Source: Geobacter sulfurreducens PCA (lineage in GTDB: Bacteria; Desulfobacterota; Desulfuromonadia; Geobacterales; Geobacteraceae). From it: DNA of 32,000 nucleotides. Both the position numbers and the translations under genes were made by a program. The notes beneath the pieces are model-generated. The model had not been told where the DNA came from, did not search any database, and saw nothing but the letters and a program-made list of their open reading frames with translations. The first letter of the stretch is position 1. Each line of letters starts with the position of its first letter. Shown here one piece after another: positions 5,342 through 31,256 of this stretch. The stretch lies in NCBI RefSeq assembly GCF_000007985.2, contig NC_002939.5:3000001-3032000 (forward strand), written 5' to 3'.

Positions 5342-5794
5342 ATGAGGGATGCCCTAGCCGAGCTTTCAGACGAGAAACGAAAACTCATCGGGAAATACCG
5401 CCTTGTTCCCAAGGACATCAATGGGAAGATTTACTGGGTACGACGGTTCGGCAATCGACCCGATCATCCCTACGCGACCCAGCGGGCACTCAGGAACTGC
5501 CACATCATCGAACTGGTCTTCAGTTTTTACGATCTCTGCGTCGCCAAGATGACCTACTTCAAGAATAACTTCGCCGATTACATCCCCTGCAAGAACAATT
5601 ACCGGGTCGGACAGATGGAAGAGTGCGAGCCGTGGGACATGGAAATCCTTGTCCAGCGGGAAACGGGCATCGTCATCGACCTCAGGAACCTGGCTGAAAT
5701 CAGTGACATCGAGGTATTCAAGGAAATGTGCAAGTGGCTGGAATCGCGGCTGAACGAAGCCGATGCATGCTCGAGGAAGGTTATGGGGCTGTGA
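5342..5794 (+). CDS. Hypothetical cytoplasmic protein (150 aa), no family recognised
   Basis: Internal ATG at 5342 preceded by GGGAGGGGGGAGG. It is the only plus-strand gene in the first 22 kb and lies in a visibly AT-richer stretch. No signal peptide or motif recognised. Confidence 0.45.
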   Translation: MRDALAELSDEKRKLIGKYRLVPKDINGKIYWVRRFGNRPDHPYATQRALRNCHIIELVFSFYDLCVAKMTYFKNNFADYIPCKNNYRVGQMEECEPWDMEILVQRETGIVIDLRNLAEISDIEVFKEMCKWLESRLNEADACSRKVMGL

Positions 5795-5814
5795 TGCAGA
5801 CCGTGAAGCCGGAG

Positions 5815-6951
5815 TCAGTCCCCGGTTTCCGCTGATATGAGTTCCGCCCGCACCCGACCGAGGGAGATGGCCGTGTCCATTCTCACGGGAACCTTGTAAG
5901 CATCGTCGGTGACCCAGATCATCATGTCACCGGTTCTCCTGAAGATACCGGCGGTCTTCAGAAGCGGATGGACAACCAGCGTATCAACGGTCCGTCCCCC
6001 CGGCAGCGTTACCCCTTCCCGCCGCAGCACCGCGACCGTAGTGGGAGCGTACTCGTTGCTGTCGAACAGGTGGAGCACCACCGGCTGCCCCACCTCAAGC
6101 CGTTTGTTTCTAAGGAAATAGAATCCCGAAACAATATCGGTCACGTCCTCCCGCGGCAGGAGATGCGTGGCGTAGCGGTTCCGCAGGCGGTCGGCCCAGA
6201 AGGCCTTTTTTTCGCGCATCATCAGGGTAAAGCCGCTGTCCCCCGTGAAGGTTCCTTCCCGCTGCCTGATCCTGGTGATCAGGTAGTTGCCGGCAACGAG
6301 CCGGGTTTCTATCACATCATCCACCGGGTATATCGCAGAGATGACCGGATAGGACCTGACGCGCGTGGTGATGGTGACTTCCTCGCGCTCCCGCCCCCGA
6401 ACCGCCTCGATCATTGCCTCGCCCACGGGAATGCCGAGCATGGTGATCCGGTAGGTGAGCTTTTCCCGGCCCGGTGCGAGAAACTCCCCAGCCCGGCGCA
6501 ACGGCGGCATGACCTCCAGGTGCTGCGGCCTGGCAGCAGGGGCTGCATCAGCCACGGCCTCGAATGATGCGGCGGGCTCAGACACGGGGGCAGCTACAGC
6601 CGCGACCTCCGGCGCTACAGGCGACAGAGCCTCGGCGGCCGGGGCGGCTTCGCGGGCGACTGACGAAGCGTTCGGCTGGTCCGCGCGCTCCGGAGCTGTA
6701 GCGACGCTCCGCTCGCCTGGCGGCACCGTCTCCCCTGGGTCGACGCTCTCACGCGGCGACTGCACCTCAGGGAGAGGCGGAACAGACGTCTCCGGTTCGC
6801 GGAGCGAAATGCTGACGTCCGCCATGGGCAGAACCGGTGTACCCAGATCGAGAATGCCGATGCTCGGGAATACACACAGTCCCGCCACGTGCACAAGCCC
6901 GGAGAGTACGACAAACACAGCGAATCGATATGATTTAACCGGCAAATCCAT
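5815..6951 (-). CDS. Membrane-anchored protein with a Pro/Ala/Glu-rich linker and a DUF3108-like C-terminal domain
   Basis: Open frame 5815..7002. The start is taken at the ATG at 6951 (MDLPVKSYRFAVFVVLSG... is a TM helix). The C-terminal 230 aa (GREKLTYRITMLGIPVGEAMIE ... MIWVTDDAYKVPVRMD ... GRVRAEL) fit my memory of DUF3108. No clear SD for either start, so the start is uncertain. Confidence 0.6.
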   Translation of the reverse strand: MDLPVKSYRFAVFVVLSGLVHVAGLCVFPSIGILDLGTPVLPMADVSISLREPETSVPPLPEVQSPRESVDPGETVPPGERSVATAPERADQPNASSVAREAAPAAEALSPVAPEVAAVAAPVSEPAASFEAVADAAPAARPQHLEVMPPLRRAGEFLAPGREKLTYRITMLGIPVGEAMIEAVRGREREEVTITTRVRSYPVISAIYPVDDVIETRLVAGNYLITRIRQREGTFTGDSGFTLMMREKKAFWADRLRNRYATHLLPREDVTDIVSGFYFLRNKRLEVGQPVVLHLFDSNEYAPTTVAVLRREGVTLPGGRTVDTLVVHPLLKTAGIFRRTGDMMIWVTDDAYKVPVRMDTAISLGRVRAELISAETGD

Positions 6952-6963
6952 GCATGGTCCGAA

Positions 6964-6997
6964 GCGCAGAGGGGGTACCGGAGCGCCCCCTCTGCGC
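6964..6997. other. Perfect 12-bp GC-rich hairpin (GCGCAGAGGGGG / CCCCCTCTGCGC, 10-nt loop)
   Basis: Read directly from the sequence. It lies 13 nt upstream of the preferred start of the DUF3108-like gene. No U-tract on either strand. Confidence 0.5.
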
Positions 6998-7178
6998 TGC
7001 ATCTATAGATGGAATCGTATCGGCAACCGGACGTCCCGGCTCCGCATCCCCGGCGTCACGCCATCGCCGAGCGGCCCCCAAGCACCCACCCCGGCCACGA
7101 CCACGCCTCGCCCGAAGAACTGCCGGGGCCCATGAACCCCGGCGCGATCCGGTGCAACGCCGCTGACCCGATCGTTAC

Positions 7179-7640
7179 TTAGTGTCCCTTCCCCTTGCCT
7201 TTTCCTTTACCCTTTTCCGTGCCGTGATGATGATCATCGTGGGAAGCATGGGATGGCTTGCCGGTCAGGGCAAAATCACCTCTCTTCAGGGCATGGAACT
7301 CGGTGGAGCCGGGCTTGATGCCGAGACGCTTGGCAATCACCCCCCATCCCTTGCCCTGATTGGCCTGATAGGTCTTCAGCACTGTTTCGTACGGTTTATG
7401 GGTCATCTGCCCCAACTGGTAGACCATAAAGGCATCCGCAGGCTCCCGGACCGACCCCAGCACCACGCTGACCTGTGCGCCGGGCACACCGAACTGAGCG
7501 CTCAGCCTGCCGGCAAAACCGGTCGGATCGGCCCTTGCCTCGACATTGAGATTGCCCAGAAAACCGTCGAGGCCGCCGGCGGCCAATGCCGCCGAACCGA
7601 TAAAGATCATCACGAGTAGTACCGCAAAAAATCGTTGCAT
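7179..7640 (-). CDS. Secreted hypothetical protein with a His-rich and (Gly-Lys)5 C-terminal tail
   Basis: Internal ATG at 7640 with AAGGAG 8 nt upstream. Signal peptide MQRFFAVLLVMIFIGSAALAAGG. The C-terminus is ...SHASHDDHHHGTEKGKGKGKGKGH. The 58-codon N-terminal extension in the ORF track has no support. Confidence 0.6.
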   Translation of the reverse strand: MQRFFAVLLVMIFIGSAALAAGGLDGFLGNLNVEARADPTGFAGRLSAQFGVPGAQVSVVLGSVREPADAFMVYQLGQMTHKPYETVLKTYQANQGKGWGVIAKRLGIKPGSTEFHALKRGDFALTGKPSHASHDDHHHGTEKGKGKGKGKGH

Positions 7641-7845: not shown

Positions 7846-10152
7846 TTACGGACGGGTCGCCCCGAGGTAGGCCTTGGCGGCCGTTGCCGTGGCGCTGTCC
7901 AGTCGAGCCGCCGTTACCTGGGCATCGATCGCAGCCGTGACGTCGTTGTTCAGTACGCCGTCAAAGATGAAGTCGATGGAATCCCAGATCAAACGCTTGC
8001 TGTAGAAGCGGTTGTGGGCATAGCCGCCCGGATCGTGGATCAGCAGGTTGGCGTTGAATGCAGCGCCCATGACATCTTGCCAGAGGGCAAGCCCGTACAC
8101 GCCAGCCCAGTTGGTGAAGGCGTTCGAGGAAACAGTCTCCCCAGGATCGGCAATGCCGTTGGCATTCGTATCTCTGTAGAAATACGGATGGGCGTTGAAG
8201 AAGAGGATTCCCTTGCCGGCCAGAGCCGCTTTGAGGGCTTCAAGGGATGCCACGTACTCTTCTTCTTCGGCGGTCAGTCCCTCGGGGGTGAGCGCAAAGG
8301 TACCGGCATGGCAGGTGACGCAGGCAGTGCTGGTAATGGCAGTGATGGCGCCCGTGCCGTCCTTGGTCACCGGCAGGAACAGGTGCGAGGTCGGGGTGGT
8401 CATGTGGCAGCCGGCGCAGGGGCCGTTGGTGCCGGTGCCGGGGGCAGCGGCGGTGCCGATCTTGTCATGCTGGAAGAAGGCCGGATTGGCGTAGCTGCGG
8501 GTTGCGTACTCATAACCGGTGGTGCCGAACAGCTGGCCGCCTGCGGTGAGATAGTGGGAGTTCACGAAGCCAAGGATACCATCCGCGTCGGTGATTGCCT
8601 TGATGTTGTCGCCAACTTCACGCCCGAGGTGACACCCCATGCACACGTTAGACCCTTTGATATCAGGATAGGAAACCGTAACGTCCAAACCGGTAGTTCC
8701 AGTGCTCGTTGAGTTGATCCCAGGATAAACCTCGGTGATGGCCCCGGGGTTGCGCAGCTCACCGGTGCCGGCCTTGGTGTGGCAGCCCCAGCAGTAGAGC
8801 AGTTCGTTCTGGTCGGACCGCTTGTTGCTGCTGGTCCAGCCGGCCAAATGAGTGAAGCTGTTGCCTGCGCCGGTCCTGTCATATCCGGCGGGGTTGTTGA
8901 GGAAGTTCGAGGCGCCGGTCGAAGTGTGGCAGCGCTGGCAGGCGCCGCGGCTGGCAGTATCGTCCCAGTTGTAGTGGGTCCAGCCGGGAGCCGTGGCGTC
9001 GGTGGCGCCGGCCTTCATGACATCGTCCACTTCAGCCGCGCCGGAGCTCGCCAGGGCCGCTGCGGCCACCTTGGCCTGGAGGAGCTTGCCACCATGGGCC
9101 GACTGTCCCCAGTCGAGGAAAATAGTGTTAGGCCGGTCCGCTCCGGCCAGCCGCCGGGTGTTGGTCTGGAACTCGTGACCGTGGCAGTCGAAGCAGGGGT
9201 TGGCGGTATTGCGCCGGATTACATACCCTTCGATCGTGGTGCCGCTGGCCGTGGTCTTGGATTCCGGGAAGTCGTAGTGGGTCGAAGGCAGGGTCCGGAA
9301 CCAACGGGTGTTGTGGTAGAAGGGGGCCGTGGTCACGCTCTTGGTGCCGGAGCCGACGGCGTTGCTGGTGAAGATCTGGAGAACGTTGCCGCTGCCGATC
9401 AGGGTGCCGGTCATGGTGTTGACGGTGTGGCAGCTGGTGCAGAGGTCGTACTGATCATTGATGCTGTTGCGGTTCGGATCCCAGGCCACCGTCCGCCGGC
9501 TATTCGGCACGCCGGCCGTCGAGATCTGGGTGAAGACCTGACGCTGAGCCCCGCCGTGCTGATGGCAGGTGGCGCACGTCATGACGTTGAAGGTCTCGGG
9601 GTCCTGGGGATACACCGGCTGGTAGGCGGCGTTTCTCAGGATGTTCCCGTCGCCGGTGAAGCCCGCCTGTGCCCCGAAAATGGCTCCTTCGTGGGAGTGA
9701 CAGCGGCTGCAGAGGTTTTCCTTGGCCTCTTCCCCGCCAAAGGGGTTGGCATGGTTGCCGTTGACGAAATTGGGCGAGCTGCTCAGGGGAGCAATCACAC
9801 CATTGTGGCAGGAGGCGCACCGGGCGGCTATCTGGGCCTCACTCTGGCCGGCCAGCGGGAACGGCAGGGGACCGACGCCATTGTGCTGGGCGCCGCCGCC
9901 GTGGCAGCCTTCGCAGCCGACACCCTTGCTGTAGTGGAATGAGCGGGTGTACTGCGTGATGATGGACTCGCCGGTCAGCGGATCCACGACAGCGCTGTGA
10001 CACTGGACGCAAGCGGTATCGCCCACGGTTGCCACGCCGCCAGGGCCGGTTCCGACCGTCCCCTCCTTGTTTTCGGAGCCGCAGCCGGCAAGCGCCGCCG
10101 CGAACAACGAAACCGCAAGCACAGCAGAATACTTTGTTACTTTTCTACTCAT
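7846..10152 (-). CDS. omcC: Outer-surface dodecaheme c-type cytochrome lipoprotein OmcC
   Basis: 768 aa. ATG at 10152 with AAGGAGG upstream. Lipobox AALAGC. 12 CXXCH motifs counted. Paralog of the 744-aa protein at 13385..15619. Size and context match my memory of G. sulfurreducens OmcC. Confidence 0.95.
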
Positions 10153-17719: not shown

Positions 17720-18367
17720 TTACGATGCCCTGGCATAGTCCGTACGGCCGATACCGCCCGTGCCGTGGACAAACATCCGGACGAATTCCCGCACGGCCTT
17801 CTCTCGGTCCGTGGGACGGTACTGCTTGCGCAGCAGTACCTCTTCGATATTGAAAAAACAGTAGAACATGGCGTGAAACACCCGCGCACCAAGCTCGGGG
17901 TCGAAACTGCCGATGCTGCCCCGCTGCTGCAGCTCACGGAAATAGGACGCGATCACTTCGAACAGCTCGTCCAAAAACGTGTGGTACACCCCCAGCAGCT
18001 TCTCAGGCGAGCGCTGGACCTCCGCGTGCATGATCCGAAGCCAGTCCTTCAGCTGGATCAGCGTGTCCAAAAGGATGTTCGCCATGGCCGCCAGCGCATC
18101 CTCGTAGGGCATGGCGAGCGCCCGGGGCACGAAGGCGCGCAGCGACGGCAAAATGGAATAACGGGTGATCGCTTCTTCGAGAAGTTTTTCTTTGGAGGGA
18201 AAATGGCGGAAGAGCGTCACCTCCGCGATGCCCGCCTGTCGGGCGATCTCGCGGGTCGTGGCTCCCAGGTACCCCTTGGTCGAGAACAGACCGAGGGCCG
18301 TTTCGAGGATCCGCTCCCTGGTTGCATTGAATGAGTCAAACGGCTTGTCGCCTTTGACAACTCCCAT
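17720..18367 (-). CDS. orfR: TetR-family transcriptional regulator OrfR
   Basis: 215 aa. ATG at 18367 with GGGAGGGG upstream. TetR HTH. Identical to OrfS except for the first 17 residues. Confidence 0.9.
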   Translation of the reverse strand: MGVVKGDKPFDSFNATRERILETALGLFSTKGYLGATTREIARQAGIAEVTLFRHFPSKEKLLEEAITRYSILPSLRAFVPRALAMPYEDALAAMANILLDTLIQLKDWLRIMHAEVQRSPEKLLGVYHTFLDELFEVIASYFRELQQRGSIGSFDPELGARVFHAMFYCFFNIEEVLLRKQYRPTDREKAVREFVRMFVHGTGGIGRTDYARAS

Positions 18368-18409: not shown

Positions 18410-18495
18410 TTCCGGGCCAAAAAAAAATCTTCAGATCAAGGTTTCTGCACTAATGAGCAAAAGGCGGGCCAATTCCATACCGGGACAATCAACTA

Positions 18496-26118: not shown

Positions 26119-27447
26119 TTACAGCACGAACTGTGAAATCCCATAGGCCGCCAGCGTGGAGACGCTAACCCCGATCAGGCCGGGAATCATGAAGCTGTGG
26201 TTCAGGAGGTATTTGCCGATGCGGGTGGTGCCGGTACGGTCGAAGTTGATGGCTGCAAGGTCGCTGGGATAGAAGGCAAAGAAGAAGTAGGCGTAGCTGG
26301 CCGGCATGAGCCCCAGCAGCAGCGGGACCGGTAGCCCCAGGGCAAGGCCCAGCGGGAGCGTGATGGCCAGGGTGGCAGCCTGGCTCTTCACAAAGGCGGA
26401 GATGCAGAAGGTGGCGATGGCAAAGGTCCAGGGGGCCATCTTGACCATGACGCCGATGTTGTCCACCAGGAACTTCTTGTTGGCGGAAATGAAGGTATCG
26501 CTCATCCAGGCGATGCCGAAGATGGAGACCACGGCGATCATGCCGGCGGTAAAGACGCTGGAGTGGGCGATGTCCTTGGCCTTCACGTCGGCGGCGAACA
26601 TGATGAAGGCGCCGTAGGCGAGCATGATGAACTGGACCACCGTGGTCATGGGCACCGGCTTCTTTTCGCCGTTGAGGGGGAGCAGGTCGGGAAACACCGC
26701 AAAGAGGATGATGGTGGCCACACCGGCAAAGAAGAGGGCCACGGACACCTTGGCGGTGGTGCTGATCTTCTTGTCCAGGGTGGTGACATCGACATCAAGG
26801 GCCTTGCGGAACTCGGCATCCTTGAGGCGCTCCTGGTACTCGGCGTCCTTGTCCAGGTCCTTGCCCCGGTTGAAGCTCCAGGCAGCGGCCACCAGCACGC
26901 CGATCACGCCGGCCGGCATGGTGACGGAGATTATGTCGATGAGGGTCACGGGATAGCCGGACTTGGAGGCAAAGCCGAGGAAAAAGGTCACTGCCGCGGC
27001 CACGGGACTGGCGGTGATCCCCATCTGGGAGGCAACGCTGGAGATGGCCATGGGCCGCTCGGGGCGGATACCGGTCTTGATGGCCACGTCGGCGATGACC
27101 GGCAGCAGCGCATAGACCGCGTGGCCGGTGCCGACACAGACCGTCAGGAAGAAGGTGGAGAGCGGGGCCAGGATGGTCACGTACTTGGGGTGGGCCCGCA
27201 ACAGCTTCTCCGTCAGTTGCACCAGGTAGTCGAGCCCCCCGGCCACCTGCAGGGTCGCCGAGGCGGTGACCACCGCCAGGATGATGAGCATGACCGCGAT
27301 GGGGGGCTCCGACGGAGAGCTGCGGAAGCCGAGCACCAGGAGCGACACGCCGAGTCCTCCGATAAGGCCCAGGGCCACCCCACCCCTGCGGATACCGATC
27401 AGGACCGCGCCGAGAACGAGAACGAACTGGATCCAGAACATCATCAT
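26119..27447 (-). CDS. dcuB: Anaerobic C4-dicarboxylate (fumarate/succinate) antiporter DcuB
   Basis: 442 aa. Strong colinear similarity to E. coli DcuB as remembered (GGVALGLIGGLG, IRPERPMA, GKDLDKD, YPSDLAAINFDRTGTT, LNHSFMIPGLIGVSVS). Confidence 0.9.
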   Translation of the reverse strand: MMMFWIQFVLVLGAVLIGIRRGGVALGLIGGLGVSLLVLGFRSSPSEPPIAVMLIILAVVTASATLQVAGGLDYLVQLTEKLLRAHPKYVTILAPLSTFFLTVCVGTGHAVYALLPVIADVAIKTGIRPERPMAISSVASQMGITASPVAAAVTFFLGFASKSGYPVTLIDIISVTMPAGVIGVLVAAAWSFNRGKDLDKDAEYQERLKDAEFRKALDVDVTTLDKKISTTAKVSVALFFAGVATIILFAVFPDLLPLNGEKKPVPMTTVVQFIMLAYGAFIMFAADVKAKDIAHSSVFTAGMIAVVSIFGIAWMSDTFISANKKFLVDNIGVMVKMAPWTFAIATFCISAFVKSQAATLAITLPLGLALGLPVPLLLGLMPASYAYFFFAFYPSDLAAINFDRTGTTRIGKYLLNHSFMIPGLIGVSVSTLAAYGISQFVL

Positions 27448-27514
27448 AACTGCCTCCCCTTAGGTCGGACCCGTTGGATCCGCACCTGTTGTCTGTCAGA
27501 TTCACCCTTCAATG

Positions 27515-27530
27515 AGCAAGGGGGATACCA
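27515..27530 (-). promoter_or_regulatory. Candidate sigma-54 promoter upstream of dcuB (TGGTATCCCCCTTGCT)
   Basis: The minus strand shows GG-N10-GC with the exact -24/-12 spacing and TTGC at -12. It lies 68-83 nt upstream of the dcuB ATG. Confidence 0.5.
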
Positions 27531-27604
27531 AGGACGACAACACCGTGCAAGAGGCTGTTTTAATTATGAAAATTGTCTTTTACAGGGATATTTCAGGAGG
27601 GAAA

Positions 27605-27629
27605 CCGGCATAACCTGCGGTTATGCCGG
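27605..27629. promoter_or_regulatory. Perfect palindrome CCGGCATAACC-TGC-GGTTATGCCGG (candidate enhancer-binding-protein site 1)
   Basis: 11-bp perfect arms, about 90-100 bp upstream of the sigma-54 promoter. Confidence 0.45.
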
Positions 27630-27679
27630 CAATGAACCGCTGCAGGTACTATCAGTTATTTCGGCAGGTTAAAACAACC

Positions 27680-27712
27680 ATAACCAAGGTTATCGCTATA
27701 ACCTCCGGTTAT
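27680..27712. promoter_or_regulatory. Two further palindromes with the same core: ATAACC-AA-GGTTAT (27680-27693) and ATAACC-TCC-GGTTAT (27698-27712)
   Basis: Read directly from the sequence. They lie 150-190 bp upstream of the sigma-54 promoter and just 3' of the regulator gene stop. Confidence 0.4.
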
Positions 27713-27718
27713 GGGGGT

Positions 27719-29125
27719 TCATTTCCGCATCATCTTGAGCCGCTTGGAGAGGGCGGGCTGGGAGATGCCGAGGAGTCGGGCGGCGAGGGTCTGGTTACCG
27801 CCGGAACGATTGAGGGCCTCTTCCACGAGGAACTCGGCGGCGTCGGTAAAGGTGGGGAGCTTGTCGAACCCGGCGAAGGGGTTCAAAGTGGGCGGCGGAG
27901 TACCGGCGGGTTCTTCCGTGCCGCCGATGGCCCTGACGAAGCTTTCCATGGAGAGCATCCGGTCCCGGTGGACGCTGACCGCATCGAAAACCATCGACTT
28001 CAACTCCCGCACGTTACCCGGGAAATTGTAGGTGGCCAGATGCTGGGCCAGTTCCGGCGGTGGCGTGGGTTTTTTCTTTCCCAGGGTGCGGGCTGCCTCG
28101 GCCAGGAAATGGTCCAGCAGGAGCGGGATGTCCCCTTTCCGCTCCCGAAGGGGCGGCATATGGACCTGGTGGGTGCGGAGCCGGTAGTAGAGGTCGCGCC
28201 GGAACTCTCCGGCAGCCTCCCGGGCCGCCAGGTTGCGGTGGGTGGCGACGATGACCCGCGCCCGGAGCCGCCGGGGCTGGTCGCTCCCCAGAGGAAAGTA
28301 CTCCCCTTCCTGGAGGAGCCGCAGGAGTTTAACCTGGGAGGGGATGCCCAGGTCGCCGATCTCGTCCAGGAACAGGGTACCGTTGGCCGCCTCCTCCACC
28401 ATGCCGCGCCGCGCCGTCTCGGCACCGGTGAAGGCGCCGCGCACGTGACCGAAGAGAGTGTCGGCGAAGACCGTGTCGTCCAGCCCGGCCACGTTCACCG
28501 CCACCAGCTGCCCTTTGCAGCCGCTCAGGGTATGGGCGGCCCGGGCCAGGAGTTCCTTGCCCACCCCGCTCTCGCCGGTGATGAGGAGCGGCTGGGGGCT
28601 CACGGCCACTGCCTCGATGTAGGCGAACAGGGAAAGCATGCCCCGGTCGGCGGTGACGATGCCGGCAAAGGCCTCCGGGTGCCGCAGGCCGCCGGAGACG
28701 AGCCGGCTCGACATCTCCCGGTTCTCCCGCTGCAGCTCCAGCATCCTGACCGCCCGGAGAACTCCCCCCACGAGCCGGTCCTCCTCGTCGGTCTTGACAA
28801 AGTAGTCGAAAGCCCCGAGCTTCATGCAGCGGACCGCGGTCTCCACCTGGTTCAGGCCGCTGATGACGATGACCGCCACCTCGGGGTGTCTCTCGCTGAT
28901 CGTGGCGAGGAGTTCCTCCCCCGACAGGTGGGGCATGGTGAGATCCAGGAGTACCAGGCCGATGCCGCCCCCTTCCAGCAGCGCCGGAACGTCCCTGCTG
29001 TCCTGGCAGAGGATGGTATTCGTGATGCCGGCGGACGACTCCAGGGTCAGGGAGAGGGAACGGAGCCAGGCCGGTTCGTCGTCAACCAGAAGGATGCCGA
29101 AGGGGGGATAGCGATTCTCGGTCAT
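27719..29125 (-). CDS. Sigma-54-dependent response regulator (NtrC family: REC, AAA+, Fis-type HTH)
   Basis: The internal ATG at 29125 gives MTENRYPPFGILLVDDE. REC phospho-site LLDLTMP. Walker A GESGVGKE, GAFTGA motif, Walker B LFLDEIGDL. C-terminal HTH LAARLLGISQPALSKRLK. Confidence 0.9.
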   Translation of the reverse strand: MTENRYPPFGILLVDDEPAWLRSLSLTLESSAGITNTILCQDSRDVPALLEGGGIGLVLLDLTMPHLSGEELLATISERHPEVAVIVISGLNQVETAVRCMKLGAFDYFVKTDEEDRLVGGVLRAVRMLELQRENREMSSRLVSGGLRHPEAFAGIVTADRGMLSLFAYIEAVAVSPQPLLITGESGVGKELLARAAHTLSGCKGQLVAVNVAGLDDTVFADTLFGHVRGAFTGAETARRGMVEEAANGTLFLDEIGDLGIPSQVKLLRLLQEGEYFPLGSDQPRRLRARVIVATHRNLAAREAAGEFRRDLYYRLRTHQVHMPPLRERKGDIPLLLDHFLAEAARTLGKKKPTPPPELAQHLATYNFPGNVRELKSMVFDAVSVHRDRMLSMESFVRAIGGTEEPAGTPPPTLNPFAGFDKLPTFTDAAEFLVEEALNRSGGNQTLAARLLGISQPALSKRLKMMRK

Positions 29126-29361
29126 AAGTGAATGGACTCCATCATTGACGTGGTTTTTCTCCTTCCGTCCCACCGCATACGGTTCCTGGAGGGGGGCGGA
29201 GGGCTCGCGGAGAAAAGAGTCCCCGCAAAAAAGCACCGGACGTCACCCGAAGGGAAAGCGCCGGAAACGGCCGATCAGCCCCCATGAAACCCGACCGGCG
29301 ACGCTTGGACTCTTTTCTGAGCGAACCCTCCGCCTCCCGATCGCCACAGTCAGCGCAACAA

Positions 29362-31134
29362 TCAGGCGATAACCGGCAGAGAAAGCGTAACCGTGGTCCC
29401 CTCGCCAAGAGCCGACTCGAAGGAAAGGGCTCCCCCATGCTCCTTGATGATGCCCGCGGATACCGAGAGCCCCAGGCCGGTGCCGCCGCTCTCCCGCTTG
29501 GTGGTGAAGAAGGGGTCGGTGAGGCGCGGGATGTTTTCCGGCGCGATGCCGCTCCCCTCATCCCGCACCCGCAGGTTCACACACCCAACGGCCGGATCGA
29601 AAGAGGTCTCCAGCTCAATACCCCGGCTCGGGTCCGGCAGGGCCTGGCAGGCGTTGAGGACCAGGTTCACCACCACCTGCTCGATCCGCTGGACGTTTGC
29701 CAGCACCCGCGGCAGGTCGGGCTCATAGCGGGCAGTGAAGCGGGTCGTGGCCTTGCGCAGCGAGGCATCCACCAGCCGTACCGCCGCCTGGGCCACGCCG
29801 TTGAGGTCGACCAGCTCCTTGCCGCCCACGTCGTCGCGCCGGGCAAAGTCCTTCAGGTCCTCAACGATCCGCTTGATCCGCTTGGCCCCGTCCTGCATCT
29901 CGTCCAGAAGCCGCGGCACCTCCTCACGAACCCGTGAGTAACGGAGCCCGCCGAGGGTGAAGTCCCCCTCCGTCCGGTAGCGCTCCTCCAGGATGGGGGC
30001 CGCATCATTGTAGATCTTGCGCAGGATCGGCACGTCCAGCAGGATGAGGCCGGTGGGGTTGTTGATCTCGTGGGCCACGCCGGAAACCAGGATGCCCAGC
30101 GCAGCCATCTTGTCGGCCTGCAGGAGCTGCTGCTGGTTAAGCTGGACCTCCTCCAGGGCCCGGGAAAGGGATTCGGTCCGCTGGGCCACCTGCCGCCGGA
30201 GCGAATGGCTCCAGAGCACCGTGCCGCCGAGGATGACGAGCAGGGGAATCACCACCACCGCCGCATACTTGGCGATCTCCTGCCAGCGGACCGGCTGGGG
30301 CTCCAGCACCCCCAGCCACTTGGCGCGGATCGCCTCGTACTGGCCGGTCTTCCTGAGGATGGCGAGCCCCTCGCTGAAGCGGGCCAGAAGCTCCGCATCC
30401 CCCTGGCGGACTGCATACCCGTAACGCTGGGCCGCGATGCTCCGGGCCACGGGCACCAGGTTCGTGAGCCGGTTCTCCCGGATGATGTACATGCCGGGAA
30501 CCATGGCCACCACCGCGTAGTCGCACCCCCCCGCGGCCAGGAGCCGGAGGGCGTCCGCCGGGGTCGGGGTCAGGACCAGGTCCTTGCCGTAGCCCCGCTC
30601 CGCCAGGTACTCGTGCATGATCCCGTCCCGGTGGAGCGCCACCTTCCTGCCCCTCAGATCCTCAAGTCCCGCGGCAGGGGGCGAATCGCGCCGGGCAAAG
30701 ATGGCATGGTAGACAATGGTGTGAGGCGGGGTGAAATCGATCTGCCTGGCCCGCTTCTCGGACCACGAGATCCCTTGGAGCACGTCGACCCGACCGCTCT
30801 TGAGGGCGGAGAACATCTCCGACCAGGCGCCGAGGCGAAACTCCACCGTCATCCCCATCACCTCGGCGATGGCCCGGGTCAGTTCCACGTTGTAGCCGGC
30901 GGGCTTGCCGTTCTGGTCGATGAACTCGTAGGGGGGGTAGTCGCGATCGCCGCCCACGACGATGGTGCGATGCCGGTCGCGGGGCGCGTCGGCGGCCGAC
31001 GCTGTTCCCACGGCCACAAGGACCAGCGCCGCGAGCACCGTCAACAGCACGGCCAGGTACCGGTAGCCGCGCCCCGGCAACGGGACGGGCGGAATCTTCC
31101 ACCGGCAGGACATGCATGCGAAGCGGCCGCCCAT
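29362..31134 (-). CDS. Sensor histidine kinase with a family-3 solute-binding-protein-type periplasmic domain
   Basis: Internal ATG at 31134 with AAGGAGG 7 nt upstream. TM helix, then a periplasmic domain (GGDRDYPPYEF, GYNVEL, ALKSGRVDVL), then a second TM helix. H-box HEINNPTG, N-box LVLNACQAL, G-boxes DEGSGI and GGTGLGLS. Confidence 0.85.
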   Translation of the reverse strand: MGGRFACMSCRWKIPPVPLPGRGYRYLAVLLTVLAALVLVAVGTASAADAPRDRHRTIVVGGDRDYPPYEFIDQNGKPAGYNVELTRAIAEVMGMTVEFRLGAWSEMFSALKSGRVDVLQGISWSEKRARQIDFTPPHTIVYHAIFARRDSPPAAGLEDLRGRKVALHRDGIMHEYLAERGYGKDLVLTPTPADALRLLAAGGCDYAVVAMVPGMYIIRENRLTNLVPVARSIAAQRYGYAVRQGDAELLARFSEGLAILRKTGQYEAIRAKWLGVLEPQPVRWQEIAKYAAVVVIPLLVILGGTVLWSHSLRRQVAQRTESLSRALEEVQLNQQQLLQADKMAALGILVSGVAHEINNPTGLILLDVPILRKIYNDAAPILEERYRTEGDFTLGGLRYSRVREEVPRLLDEMQDGAKRIKRIVEDLKDFARRDDVGGKELVDLNGVAQAAVRLVDASLRKATTRFTARYEPDLPRVLANVQRIEQVVVNLVLNACQALPDPSRGIELETSFDPAVGCVNLRVRDEGSGIAPENIPRLTDPFFTTKRESGGTGLGLSVSAGIIKEHGGALSFESALGEGTTVTLSLPVIA

Positions 31135-31256
31135 GGCGGAGCCTCCTTTCCGGCTAATCGGTCGCGCGGGCACGGACCGATCCCGGCGCTTGTATCGGAC
31201 GGGTCACTATAGTATAACACCCAGACGAGCCGTCCATCAGCCCGGGGGCACTGCCC

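Follow-up and report, generated by a model that had tools for sequence, protein, structure and literature searches.

The control region of dcuB in Geobacter sulfurreducens is, quite likely, an enhancer-dependent sigma-54 promoter driven by the sensor kinase HK29 and the adjacent NtrC-type regulator through three upstream dyads. Positions are given in the window, i.e., the whole stretch of 32,000 nucleotides of the G. sulfurreducens PCA genome that was analysed, and genome coordinates are obtained by adding 3,000,005 to them.

Genes flanking the dcuB control region

26119..27447, minus strand: dcuB (GSU2751), anaerobic C4-dicarboxylate exchanger (Pfam DcuA_DcuB, 2.7e-141; NCBIfam PRK12489, 630 bits)
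27719..29125, minus strand: NtrC-type response regulator/enhancer-binding protein of 468 aa, with the domains REC, Sigma54_activat, AAA_lid and HTH_8
29362..31173, minus strand: sensor histidine kinase HK29, with the domains SBP_bac_3, HisKA and HATPase_c, and thus with a periplasmic domain of the solute-binding-protein type

The coordinates of dcuB agreed with those of GSU2751 in the supplement of Leang et al. (2009). Judging from its predicted protein, the regulator carries every hallmark of an enhancer-binding protein. Significant Pfam matches were obtained for the receiver (Response_reg, 5.6e-21), the central (Sigma54_activat, 2.2e-52) and the DNA-binding domain (HTH_8, 6.7e-08), and the GAFTGA motif (residue 230), Walker A (GESGVGK, 184), Walker B (LFLDE, 251) and the arginine-finger region (RRDLYYRL, 309) were present. 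The best solved relatives of this protein were NtrC1, ZraR and LuxO, and its scores fell below every named NCBIfam equivalog cut-off.

Residues 61-292 of HK29 were 100% identical over 232 residues to PDB entry 3H7M (Cheung, Le-Khac and Hendrickson, 2009), named G. sulfurreducens HK29s (PMC12942934), which is therefore the periplasmic domain of this very kinase. The true start codon of HK29 probably lies downstream of 31173. In the citing papers covered, such as PMC12942934, 3H7M is used only as a structural example. The link of this kinase to dcuB and to the dyads is drawn here; at the level of gene neighbourhood it had already been made by Aklujkar et al. (2010). The literature search retrieved no papers on GSU2752-2755.

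Sigma-54 promoter of dcuB

27515..27530, minus strand: sigma-54 -24/-12 element TGGTATCCCCCTTGCT, assigned by pattern, identity with Promoter 64 and conservation; predicted +1 near 27504
27548..27560, minus strand: IHF-like core AAACAGCCTCTTG (WATCAR-N4-TTR with one mismatch), at -56 to -44
27561..27590, minus strand: A+T-rich tract upstream of the IHF-like core; orthologues are generally A+T-rich there

The -24/-12 element was located at 27530-27515, 68-83 nt upstream of the dcuB ATG (27447), exactly where the first-pass annotation had placed it. It reads TGGTAT-CCCCC-TTGCT, with the GG and GC dinucleotides 10 bp apart in the canonical TGG-N8-TTGC spacing. The pattern TGG-N8-TTGCW was by itself common in the 32-kb window (2 found, 1.6 expected), and the tighter form TGGYAY-N5-TTGCW occurred once against 0.09 expected. 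Since the general pattern alone is not rare, the promoter call relies on its conservation in relatives and on the primer extension published for it. In this position 29 orthologues carry TTGGCAY-N5-hTGCT, and the 17-mer of the window was identical, in its coordinates too, to TTGGTATCCCCCTTGCT, published as "Promoter 64" (3027520-3027536, minus strand) and assigned to GSU2750-GSU2751 (Leang et al., 2009, BMC Genomics 10:331). In that work primer extension, which mapped the 5' end, confirmed the dcuB promoter as RpoN-type along with others, and dcuB rose 1.63-fold upon overexpression of RpoN. Leang et al. (2009) also remarked on the activator gene upstream of dcuB and could not obtain an rpoN deletion in G. 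sulfurreducens; DcuB being essential for fumarate respiration in this organism, the RpoN dependence of dcuB was one of the reasons they offered for the failure to delete rpoN with fumarate as electron acceptor. The assignment of a sigma-54 promoter to dcuB is thus correct and already experimentally established by published work. A promoter scan of 27300-27800 revealed no competing -35/-10 pair of the sigma-70 type, and no Rfam family was matched within 27200-27900 at E ≤ 1.

An A+T-rich tract at about 27553-27590 had also been proposed as a possible bend. The tract is real: over the 20 nt that precede the IHF-like core, A+T makes up 85% of the window sequence. The proposed bending can be narrowed to the IHF-like WATCAR-N4-TTR sequence at 27560-27548. 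The best match to this pattern between the proximal dyad and the promoter fell at -55/-56 in 18 of the 30 promoters compared (0-2 mismatches); the match is modest, and a role of IHF at this place would be tentative.

Three conserved dyads upstream of the promoter

27698..27712, no strand assigned: candidate distal enhancer site 1, exact dyad ATAACC-GGA-GGTTAT (read 27712-27698), centre about -201
27680..27693, no strand assigned: candidate distal enhancer site 2, ATAACC-TT-GGTTAT (read 27693-27680), spacer N2, centre about -182.5
27658..27664, minus strand: short element CCGAAAT (consensus cTGAAAT), from conserved columns of the 30-sequence alignment, about 12 bp downstream of site 2
27605..27629, minus strand: candidate proximal enhancer site 3, CCGGCATAACC-GCA-GGTTATGCCGG (read 27629-27605), within a hairpin with 11-bp arms; core 27610-27624, centre about -113

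The motif ATAACC-N2-3-GGTTAT was present three times in the 32-kb window, always at dcuB, whereas shuffled sequences gave an expectation of 0.00; the three palindromes with one shared core described previously were all found at the coordinates given for them. When up to two mismatches were allowed, one extra weak dyad match appeared in the window, at 8725. The perfect 11-bp arms around a TGC spacer at 27605-27629 were confirmed, as was the end of the regulator gene 7 bp beyond the last palindrome (TGA at 27721-27719).

The 300 nt upstream of dcuB were aligned for 30 sequences, namely the window and 29 orthologues from Geobacteraceae and relatives. Conserved blocks corresponded mainly to the three dyads, the short GAAAT element, the IHF-like core, the -24/-12 element and the ribosome-binding site. 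The search for the motif in orthologous regions suggested by the first-pass annotation gave a clear answer, with dyad centres at about -201, -182 and -111 from the predicted start, each ±2, in 30/30 promoters. Site 1 was found at -198 to -202 and the core of site 3 at -109 to -113 in all 30, and the successive arm positions A/T/A/A/C/C of site 1 were conserved in 29, 29, 29, 29, 28 and 29 of 29. Site 2 was the least conserved dyad, being degenerate in loci L031, L037 and L071; its spacer is N2 in G. sulfurreducens and N3 in nearly all orthologues, the distance between sites 1 and 2 being 18.5 and 19 bp, respectively. Given the N2 spacer, site 2 of G. sulfurreducens may be a weakened site. Six loci (L003, L004, L009, L011, L013, and L015) presented a gap of 0.7-2.5 kb between regulator and dcuB, yet the dyads kept a distance of about 270 nt from dcuB on its upstream side. 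Across 701 kb of related loci, exact copies of ATAACC-N3-GGTTAT were confined to such promoter regions, 56 in total (0.016 expected from composition); they include the copies that precede a DcuA/B paralogue in L044 and L055.

On the basis of these comparisons, the palindromes are very probably the enhancer docking sites of the adjacent activator. Their earlier reading as enhancer sites is strongly supported by position, exclusivity and covariation with the recognition helix of the regulator, with the refinement that the 11-bp arms exceed the protein site. The site definition for this activator is probably new, whereas the promoter was already known. No published definition of its binding sites was found within the reach of the search, outside which most subscription journals and databases such as RegPrecise lay; the literature retrieved on dcuB with two-component systems and enhancer-binding proteins in Geobacter held no site definition, queries with the motif sequence returned primer matches only, and no usable genome-wide transcription start site or ChIP-chip paper was found for G. 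sulfurreducens.

Regarding the short element, promoters of the TTAACC-type paralogues showed a similar GAAAT or GAATT at the same place. Its reading as an extended -10 (cTGAAATTAT) was discarded, the window version CCGAAATAAC not fitting that pattern.

Half-sites of paralogous activators

Paralogous activators encoded beside dctA, porin or flavocytochrome genes were accompanied by altered half-sites (TTAACC, ATAGCC), and their recognition helices displayed matching substitutions. The helix-turn-helix read GNQT[LIM]AARLLGISQPALSKRLK at ATAACC loci, GVQAIAARLLGIS[PA]PALNKRLK at TTAACC-N2-GGTTAA loci and GNQTLAARLLGISQPSLWKRLK at ATAGCC-N3-GGCTAT loci, and the three half-site types were found together in the genome of Geomonas azotofigens (L028, L069, and L067). 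This set represents a small natural example of duplicated enhancer-binding proteins diverging in DNA specificity.

Targets of the paralogues comprised DctA, DctP, DctQ, a DcuA/B paralogue, porin O/P and a flavocytochrome c with a FAD domain of the fumarate-reductase type. By analogy with these targets, the ligand of HK29 would most probably be a C4-dicarboxylate such as fumarate, malate or succinate, in agreement with work on G. bemidjiensis (Aklujkar et al., 2010). No equivalent regulator was found among the Desulfovibrio regulators of Kazakov et al. (2015).

Hairpin at the proximal dyad and alternative explanations

The palindromes could be mainly RNA hairpins, i.e., terminators or 3'-end stabilisers of the co-directional kinase-regulator transcript, instead of protein sites, and several observations, mostly on site 3, go in that direction. 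The kinase-regulator genes end 6 nt before the first palindrome and are read in the same direction. The outer five stem pairs of site 3 covaried (31 doubly changed cells vs. 12.7 ± 3.2 in shuffles, 0/500), its mean stem extension was 4.2 bp (vs. 0.5 and 0.6 bp for sites 1 and 2), and the RNA of the window folded into a helix of 11-12 bp with -22.9 kcal/mol (z -3.97). In ten orthologues site 3 reads ATAGCC..GGTTAT, so that G pairs with U in the sense RNA. The hairpin was often trailed by a T-run in relatives, and an independent scan called it terminator-like in L021 and L026; the site of the window, with a tail of only UUU, was not called by that scan. Stem extension was around 4.5 bp where the regulator lay immediately upstream vs. 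around 2.7 bp in the six loci where the two genes lie apart, numbers too small for a trend to be claimed. Against an origin of all three dyads in RNA structure, the 12 core bases were near-invariant across genera while loop and outer stem varied, which structure alone would not produce; sites 1 and 2 lacked both stem extension and T-run; the dyads remained by dcuB even with the regulator gene up to 2.5 kb away; the half-sites covaried with the recognition helix of the regulator; and the distance to the -24/-12 element was fixed. We therefore consider it very unlikely that the palindromes are mainly RNA hairpins. Beyond the protein site, the arms of site 3 would instead belong to a covarying hairpin of RNA type, which resembles a terminator in many relatives and is added to a candidate enhancer site, and we propose tentatively that site 3 may additionally act as a terminator-like 3' hairpin of the kinase-regulator transcript.

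The dyads could also be bound by another factor (a repressor, for example, or a protein that controls anaerobic respiration globally), the adjacent activator binding elsewhere or nowhere. Deletion of the regulator gene GSU1771 (ΔGSU1771) alters dcuB expression, thus indicating that other inputs to dcuB are present, and the conserved GAAAT element suggests that additional factors may act at this promoter. However, all the dyad-bearing promoters adjoin, or share a locus with, a member of the same regulator family, changes in the half-sites track the helix-turn-helix substitutions of that family, and position and number of the dyads fit enhancer sites; binding by a different factor is accordingly very unlikely. 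As for a chance cluster or a dispersed repeat without regulatory role, multicopy nucleotide features have been described near these genes in G. bemidjiensis (Aklujkar et al., 2010), but an expectation of 0.00 for the three dyads of the window, the confinement of all 56 exact copies in the 701 kb to equivalent promoter positions, and the constancy of these positions across genera effectively refute this explanation, to which we attach almost no weight.

Taking the activator as the protein that binds the dyads, a broader reading would combine two proposals. Site 3 would be of dual use, one 25-bp sequence under selection both as DNA enhancer and as RNA terminator or 3' hairpin of the activator transcript, and the pairs of SBP-type kinase and enhancer-binding protein of Desulfuromonadales would form parallel C4-dicarboxylate circuits (dcuB, dctA, dctPQM, porin, and flavocytochrome), insulated from each other by a half-site code (ATAACC/TTAACC/ATAGCC), by N3 or N2 spacers and by 2-3 substitutions in the recognition helix. 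This combination is possible, and we lean slightly against its holding as a whole.

Proposed mechanism of dcuB activation

In the mechanism that we infer from these features, the periplasmic solute-binding-type domain of HK29 would sense a signal, most probably a C4-dicarboxylate, and the kinase would phosphorylate the adjacent regulator at its receiver aspartate, probably D61. Dimers of the regulator would occupy the 15-bp dyads cATAACC-N3-GGTTAT, as an abutting pair at about -201/-182 (19 bp apart) plus the site at about -111, and would assemble there into an active AAA+ ring. A bend at the IHF-like site around -50 and the A+T tract would bring this ring to the sigma-54 RNA polymerase waiting in closed complex at TGGTAT-N5-TTGCT, where ATP hydrolysis would open the promoter, with transcription of dcuB-GSU2750 from near 27504. 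On the sense transcript, the hairpin of the proximal dyad would probably terminate the kinase-regulator message or stabilise its 3' end. Three helical turns separate the NtrC sites at glnAp2, whereas the 19 bp between sites 1 and 2 correspond to about 1.8 turns; the geometry of assembly is therefore not obviously canonical.

Comparison with known systems

In Rhizobium, DctB/DctD exert sigma-54 control of dctA through tandem upstream DctD sites. Both systems are two-component, with an NtrC-type activator, dyads upstream of a sigma-54 promoter and a C4-dicarboxylate transporter gene beside the regulators. They differ in the sensor domain, which is here SBP_bac_3 (that of 3H7M) and not of the DctB type, in the target, here an exchanger of fumarate respiration, and in the number of sites, here three, of which the two distal ones abut at -201/-182. 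As far as protein and promoter sequences indicate, the HK29/regulator system would work like DctBD, yet it is not a member of it. NtrC promoters of the glnAp2/nifH type, with dyad enhancers and looping assisted by IHF, share with dcuB a GAFTGA activator and dyads located over 100 bp upstream, and dcuB has an A+T tract with a candidate IHF-like core between these dyads and the -24/-12 element; particular to dcuB are the sequence ATAACC-N3-GGTTAT, the 19-bp distal pair, the third site 71 bp further and the fusion of the proximal site to a hairpin. DcuS/DcuR of Escherichia coli resembles the present system functionally, in the two-component induction of dcuB by external C4-dicarboxylates, but it is defined by a sigma-70 promoter and a non-AAA+ regulator, in contrast with the sigma-54-type promoter and AAA+ enhancer-binding regulator found here.

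The dcuB promoter of Leang et al. (2009) is the same locus with the same -24/-12 element and a 5' end determined by primer extension. That work makes no mention of enhancer sites, palindromes or inverted repeats, nor of an IHF site, the sensor's identity or conservation in relatives, all of which the present analysis adds. Together with the HK29/regulator pair, the enhancer sites would turn the published promoter into a full circuit from signal to gene and provide a candidate ligand class for 3H7M. In the laboratory this model electroactive bacterium is grown as standard by fumarate respiration, and the 15-bp motif could be used for regulon prediction or as a compact fumarate-responsive part in Geobacter engineering. 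This is a real, ordinary and well-conserved enhancer-dependent promoter, which leaves the general understanding of sigma-54 regulation unchanged.

Leader of the dcuB transcript

27462..27487, minus strand: hairpin in the 5' UTR of the dcuB mRNA, core CGGAUCC-AAC-GGGUCCG, from single-sequence folds
27453..27457, minus strand: ribosome-binding site GGAGG, within a block before the ATG that was invariant in the alignment

When the 5' UTRs were aligned with MAFFT, RNAalifold gave no consensus structure, as their hairpins do not line up there. Folded one by one, nearly all the orthologues presented a hairpin in the corresponding position, of differing sequence, the folding z being negative in 27 of 30.

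Promoter and upstream dyads of dcuB

The first-pass annotation had placed a sigma-54 promoter, three palindromes and the end of an activator gene upstream of dcuB (GSU2751). Reading of the minus strand over 27300-27800 recovered the promoter, the palindromes and the regulator stop exactly where they had been claimed, and domain searches (DcuB, sigma-54 activator) agreed with its account of the flanking genes.

Features upstream of dcuB (window positions; dyads in minus-strand reading)
27721-27719, minus, stop codon TGA of the regulator gene
27712-27698, minus, site 1, ATAACC-GGA-GGTTAT
27693-27680, minus, site 2, ATAACC-TT-GGTTAT
27629-27605, minus, site 3, CCGGCATAACC-GCA-GGTTATGCCGG
27560-27548, minus, IHF-like core AAACAGCCTCTTG, one mismatch to WATCAR-N4-TTR
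27530-27515, minus, sigma-54 -24/-12 element TGGTATCCCCCTTGCT
27447, minus, dcuB ATG

The promoter itself is already known. It was published as Promoter 64 (TTGGTATCCCCCTTGCT, 3027520-3027536, minus, operon GSU2750-GSU2751) by Leang et al. 2009 (PMC2725144), with coordinates that fit the window element at an offset of 3,000,005, and primer GSU2751-02 of that study is the reverse complement of window 27430-27412. These matches, with that of Promoter 8 (see below), identify the window as G. sulfurreducens PCA. The same authors validated this RpoN-type promoter by primer extension, reported a 1.63-fold increase of dcuB in an RpoN-overexpressing strain and stated that an enhancer-binding-protein gene lies upstream; palindromes or inverted repeats are not mentioned in their paper, where "enhancer" appears only as general background. 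In the window, TGG-N8-TTGCW was by itself not rare (2 found vs. 1.6 expected), whereas the tighter TGGYAY-N5-TTGCW was found once against 0.09 expected. Three copies of ATAACC-N2-3-GGTTAT occurred in the 32-kb window, all upstream of dcuB (0.00 expected from shuffles), and tolerating two mismatches added one weak match, at 8725; a chance repeat is a weak explanation of such dyads.

DcuB gave a Pfam match of 2.7e-141. The regulator (27719-29125) displayed REC, Sigma54_activat and HTH_8 domains with GAFTGA, Walker A and B motifs and an arginine finger, and the histidine kinase HK29 (29362-31173) a periplasmic SBP_bac_3 domain; kinase residues 61-292 were 100% identical to PDB 3H7M, a sensor domain named G. 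sulfurreducens HK29s in later papers (PMC12942934). No paper defining the binding sites of the regulator was found in the part of the literature open to searching. The kinase stop and regulator start are separated by a G+C-rich gap of 236 bp (29126-29361), which the closest relatives (loci L001 and L002) also have; in other orthologues the distance is about 20 bp.

Conservation across dcuB promoters

With the regulator as query against GTDB species genomes, 80 loci were retrieved (70-91% identity; Geobacter, Geomonas, Citrifermentans, Oryzomonas, Trichloromonas and many MAGs). The kinase lay upstream of the regulator in 80/80, and a dcuB orthologue (86-95% identity) downstream in 29. When the 300-nt regions preceding dcuB in these 29 loci and the window (30 sequences) were aligned, the following blocks stood out from sequence that was otherwise unalignable.

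Conserved blocks in the 30-sequence alignment
Site 1, cATAACC-N3-GGTTATA
Site 2, cATAACc-N3-GGTTAT, 19 bp past site 1
Short cTGAAAT
Site 3, CCATA(A/G)CC-N3-GGTTATGG
A+T-rich stretch with wTCAr-N4-TTA/G at its end
TTGGCAY-N5-hTGCT
Before dcuB, hairpin-forming segment, GGAGG, ATG

Conservation in orthologous regions had been named beforehand as a check on the palindromes, and it held in 30/30 promoters, with dyad centres at -201, -182 and -111 (C of the GC element as -12), each at most about 2 bp off. Base counts indicated nearly invariant arms and free spacers. In six loci (L003, L004, L009, L011, L013, L015) the regulator and dcuB are 0.7-2.5 kb apart and the dyads stay about 270 nt upstream of dcuB; they are thus components of the dcuB promoter rather than of the regulator gene end. 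Exact ATAACC-N3-GGTTAT occurred 56 times in 701 kb of loci (0.016 predicted from composition), 56/56 in such promoter regions, including five copies upstream of a DcuA/B paralogue preceding the kinase gene (L044, L055). The spacer of site 2 is 2 bp in G. sulfurreducens (ATAACCTTGGTTAT, 27680-27693) and 3 bp in nearly all orthologues; N2 is the form of a paralogous regulator group adjoining dctA or dctP in other species.

The A+T tract that had been proposed to bend the DNA is real, and the claim is refined in that its conserved part is the IHF-like core: the best WATCAR-N4-TTR match between site 3 and the promoter fell in the same register in 18/30 promoters, and we infer that IHF would bind at 27560-27548. 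The cTGAAAT element (CCGAAAT in the window, 27658-27664, minus, about 12 bp downstream of site 2) was not accounted for by dyad, IHF or sigma-70 models; a similar GAAAT/GAATT appears in TTAACC-type paralogue promoters.

Paralogous loci and protein-DNA covariation

The retrieved loci other than these 29 are paralogues, in which the downstream genes encode DctA, DctP, DctQ, a DcuA/B paralogue, porin O/P or a cytochrome-c3/FAD flavocytochrome. Their promoters retain the dcuB layout, in which a pair of abutting dyads precedes the -24/-12 element by about 177-182 bp, frequently with a weaker proximal site, and their half-sites vary in step with the regulator helix-turn-helix.

Half-sites and matching helix-turn-helix sequences
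ATAACC (N3 or N2 spacer): GNQT[LIM]AARLLGISQPALSKRLK
TTAACC-N2-GGTTAA: GVQAIAARLLGIS[PA]PALNKRLK
ATAGCC-N3-GGCTAT: GNQTLAARLLGISQPSLWKRLK

This covariation, the best available evidence short of experiment, suggests that the adjacent regulator reads the dyads; reading by a different factor is a weak alternative. All three half-site types occur together in Geomonas azotofigens Red51 (L028, L069, L067).

Genomes carry up to three paralogous pairs (Red51; also G. paludis, L021 and L064), with ATAACC at dcuB, ATAGCC at the porin and TTAACC at dctA and matching recognition-helix substitutions, in what look like insulated parallel circuits. Three similar pairs, beside dcuB, dctA and a phosphate-selective porin gene, were described in G. 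bemidjiensis (Aklujkar et al. 2010). In L040 and L046 (about 5600-7470), the gene downstream of a paralogue group encodes a flavocytochrome of 596 aa (cytochrome c3 + FAD_binding_2) similar to soluble fumarate reductase; its upstream region has one ATAGCC-N3-GGCTAT dyad together with a TGGCAC-N5-ATGCT element.

Hairpin at site 3

Pairing beyond the 6-bp arms averaged 0.5 bp at site 1, 0.6 bp at site 2 and 4.2 bp at site 3, which is frequently followed by a T-run. Over 11 pairs of the site 3 stem (ungapped alignment, 29 distinct sequences), 88% of cells were paired vs. 25-40% with the partner slid, and 31 cells had changed on both sides vs. 12.7 ± 3.2 in shuffles (0/500). Outer pairs vary (U-A 8, C-G 7 and G-C 3 at one position), and 10 sequences read ATAGCC..GGTTAT, which pairs as G-U in the sense RNA but is mismatched (A-C) on the opposite strand. 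For the window hairpin the folding energy is -22.9 kcal/mol (z -3.97). Orthologous copies in L021 (12-bp stem + TTTTATTT) and L026 were classed as terminator-like by an independent scan, which did not call the window copy, with its tail of UUU only. That the dyads are hairpins only is a weak reading, to be set beside the short pairing of sites 1 and 2. In our reading of the sequences, the site 3 core would be a protein site extended by evolution into a hairpin, and an additional role in ending or protecting the co-directional kinase-regulator transcript is conceivable, if somewhat doubtful.

Proposed circuit

The observations are best explained by an enhancer-dependent circuit of the standard kind. 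HK29 would sense a periplasmic ligand, probably a C4-dicarboxylate (the ligand class suggested by the family's target genes), and phosphorylate the regulator, which would occupy the dyads at -201, -182 and -111; an IHF-assisted loop would carry it to the sigma-54 closed complex, whose remodeling would allow dcuB-GSU2750 transcription from about 27504. Speculatively, three dimer sites could supply the six protomers of one AAA+ ring. The circuit works like Rhizobium DctB/DctD-dctA, but its sensor domain, of the solute-binding-protein type, places it outside that family. The enhancer-site definition, site geometry, IHF-like element and paralogue code are apparently new, each exemplifying a class of system that is well understood. 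Their interest is modest and would rise somewhat with confirmation of the dual-use hairpin or of the specificity code.

Other elements

The sole other TGG-N8-TTGCW match in the window, a -24/-12-like element (TGGCCCGCCTTTTGCT, 18456-18471, minus, upstream of ORF 17720-18367), corresponds at the same offset to one of the RpoN promoters predicted by Leang et al. 2009 (PMC2725144), Promoter 8, with a score of 91. dcuB opens with three successive ATG codons (27439-27447), the second of which (window 27444) is the start in the annotation used by those authors; orthologues start M(A)MFWIQF. The dcuB 5' UTR contains a hairpin (27462-27487, minus, core CGGAUCC-AAC-GGGUCCG, some 17-42 nt past the predicted start) without an Rfam match, which may stabilise the mRNA. 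A hairpin of differing sequence occupies the same place in nearly every orthologue, and the UTR folding z was negative in 27/30.
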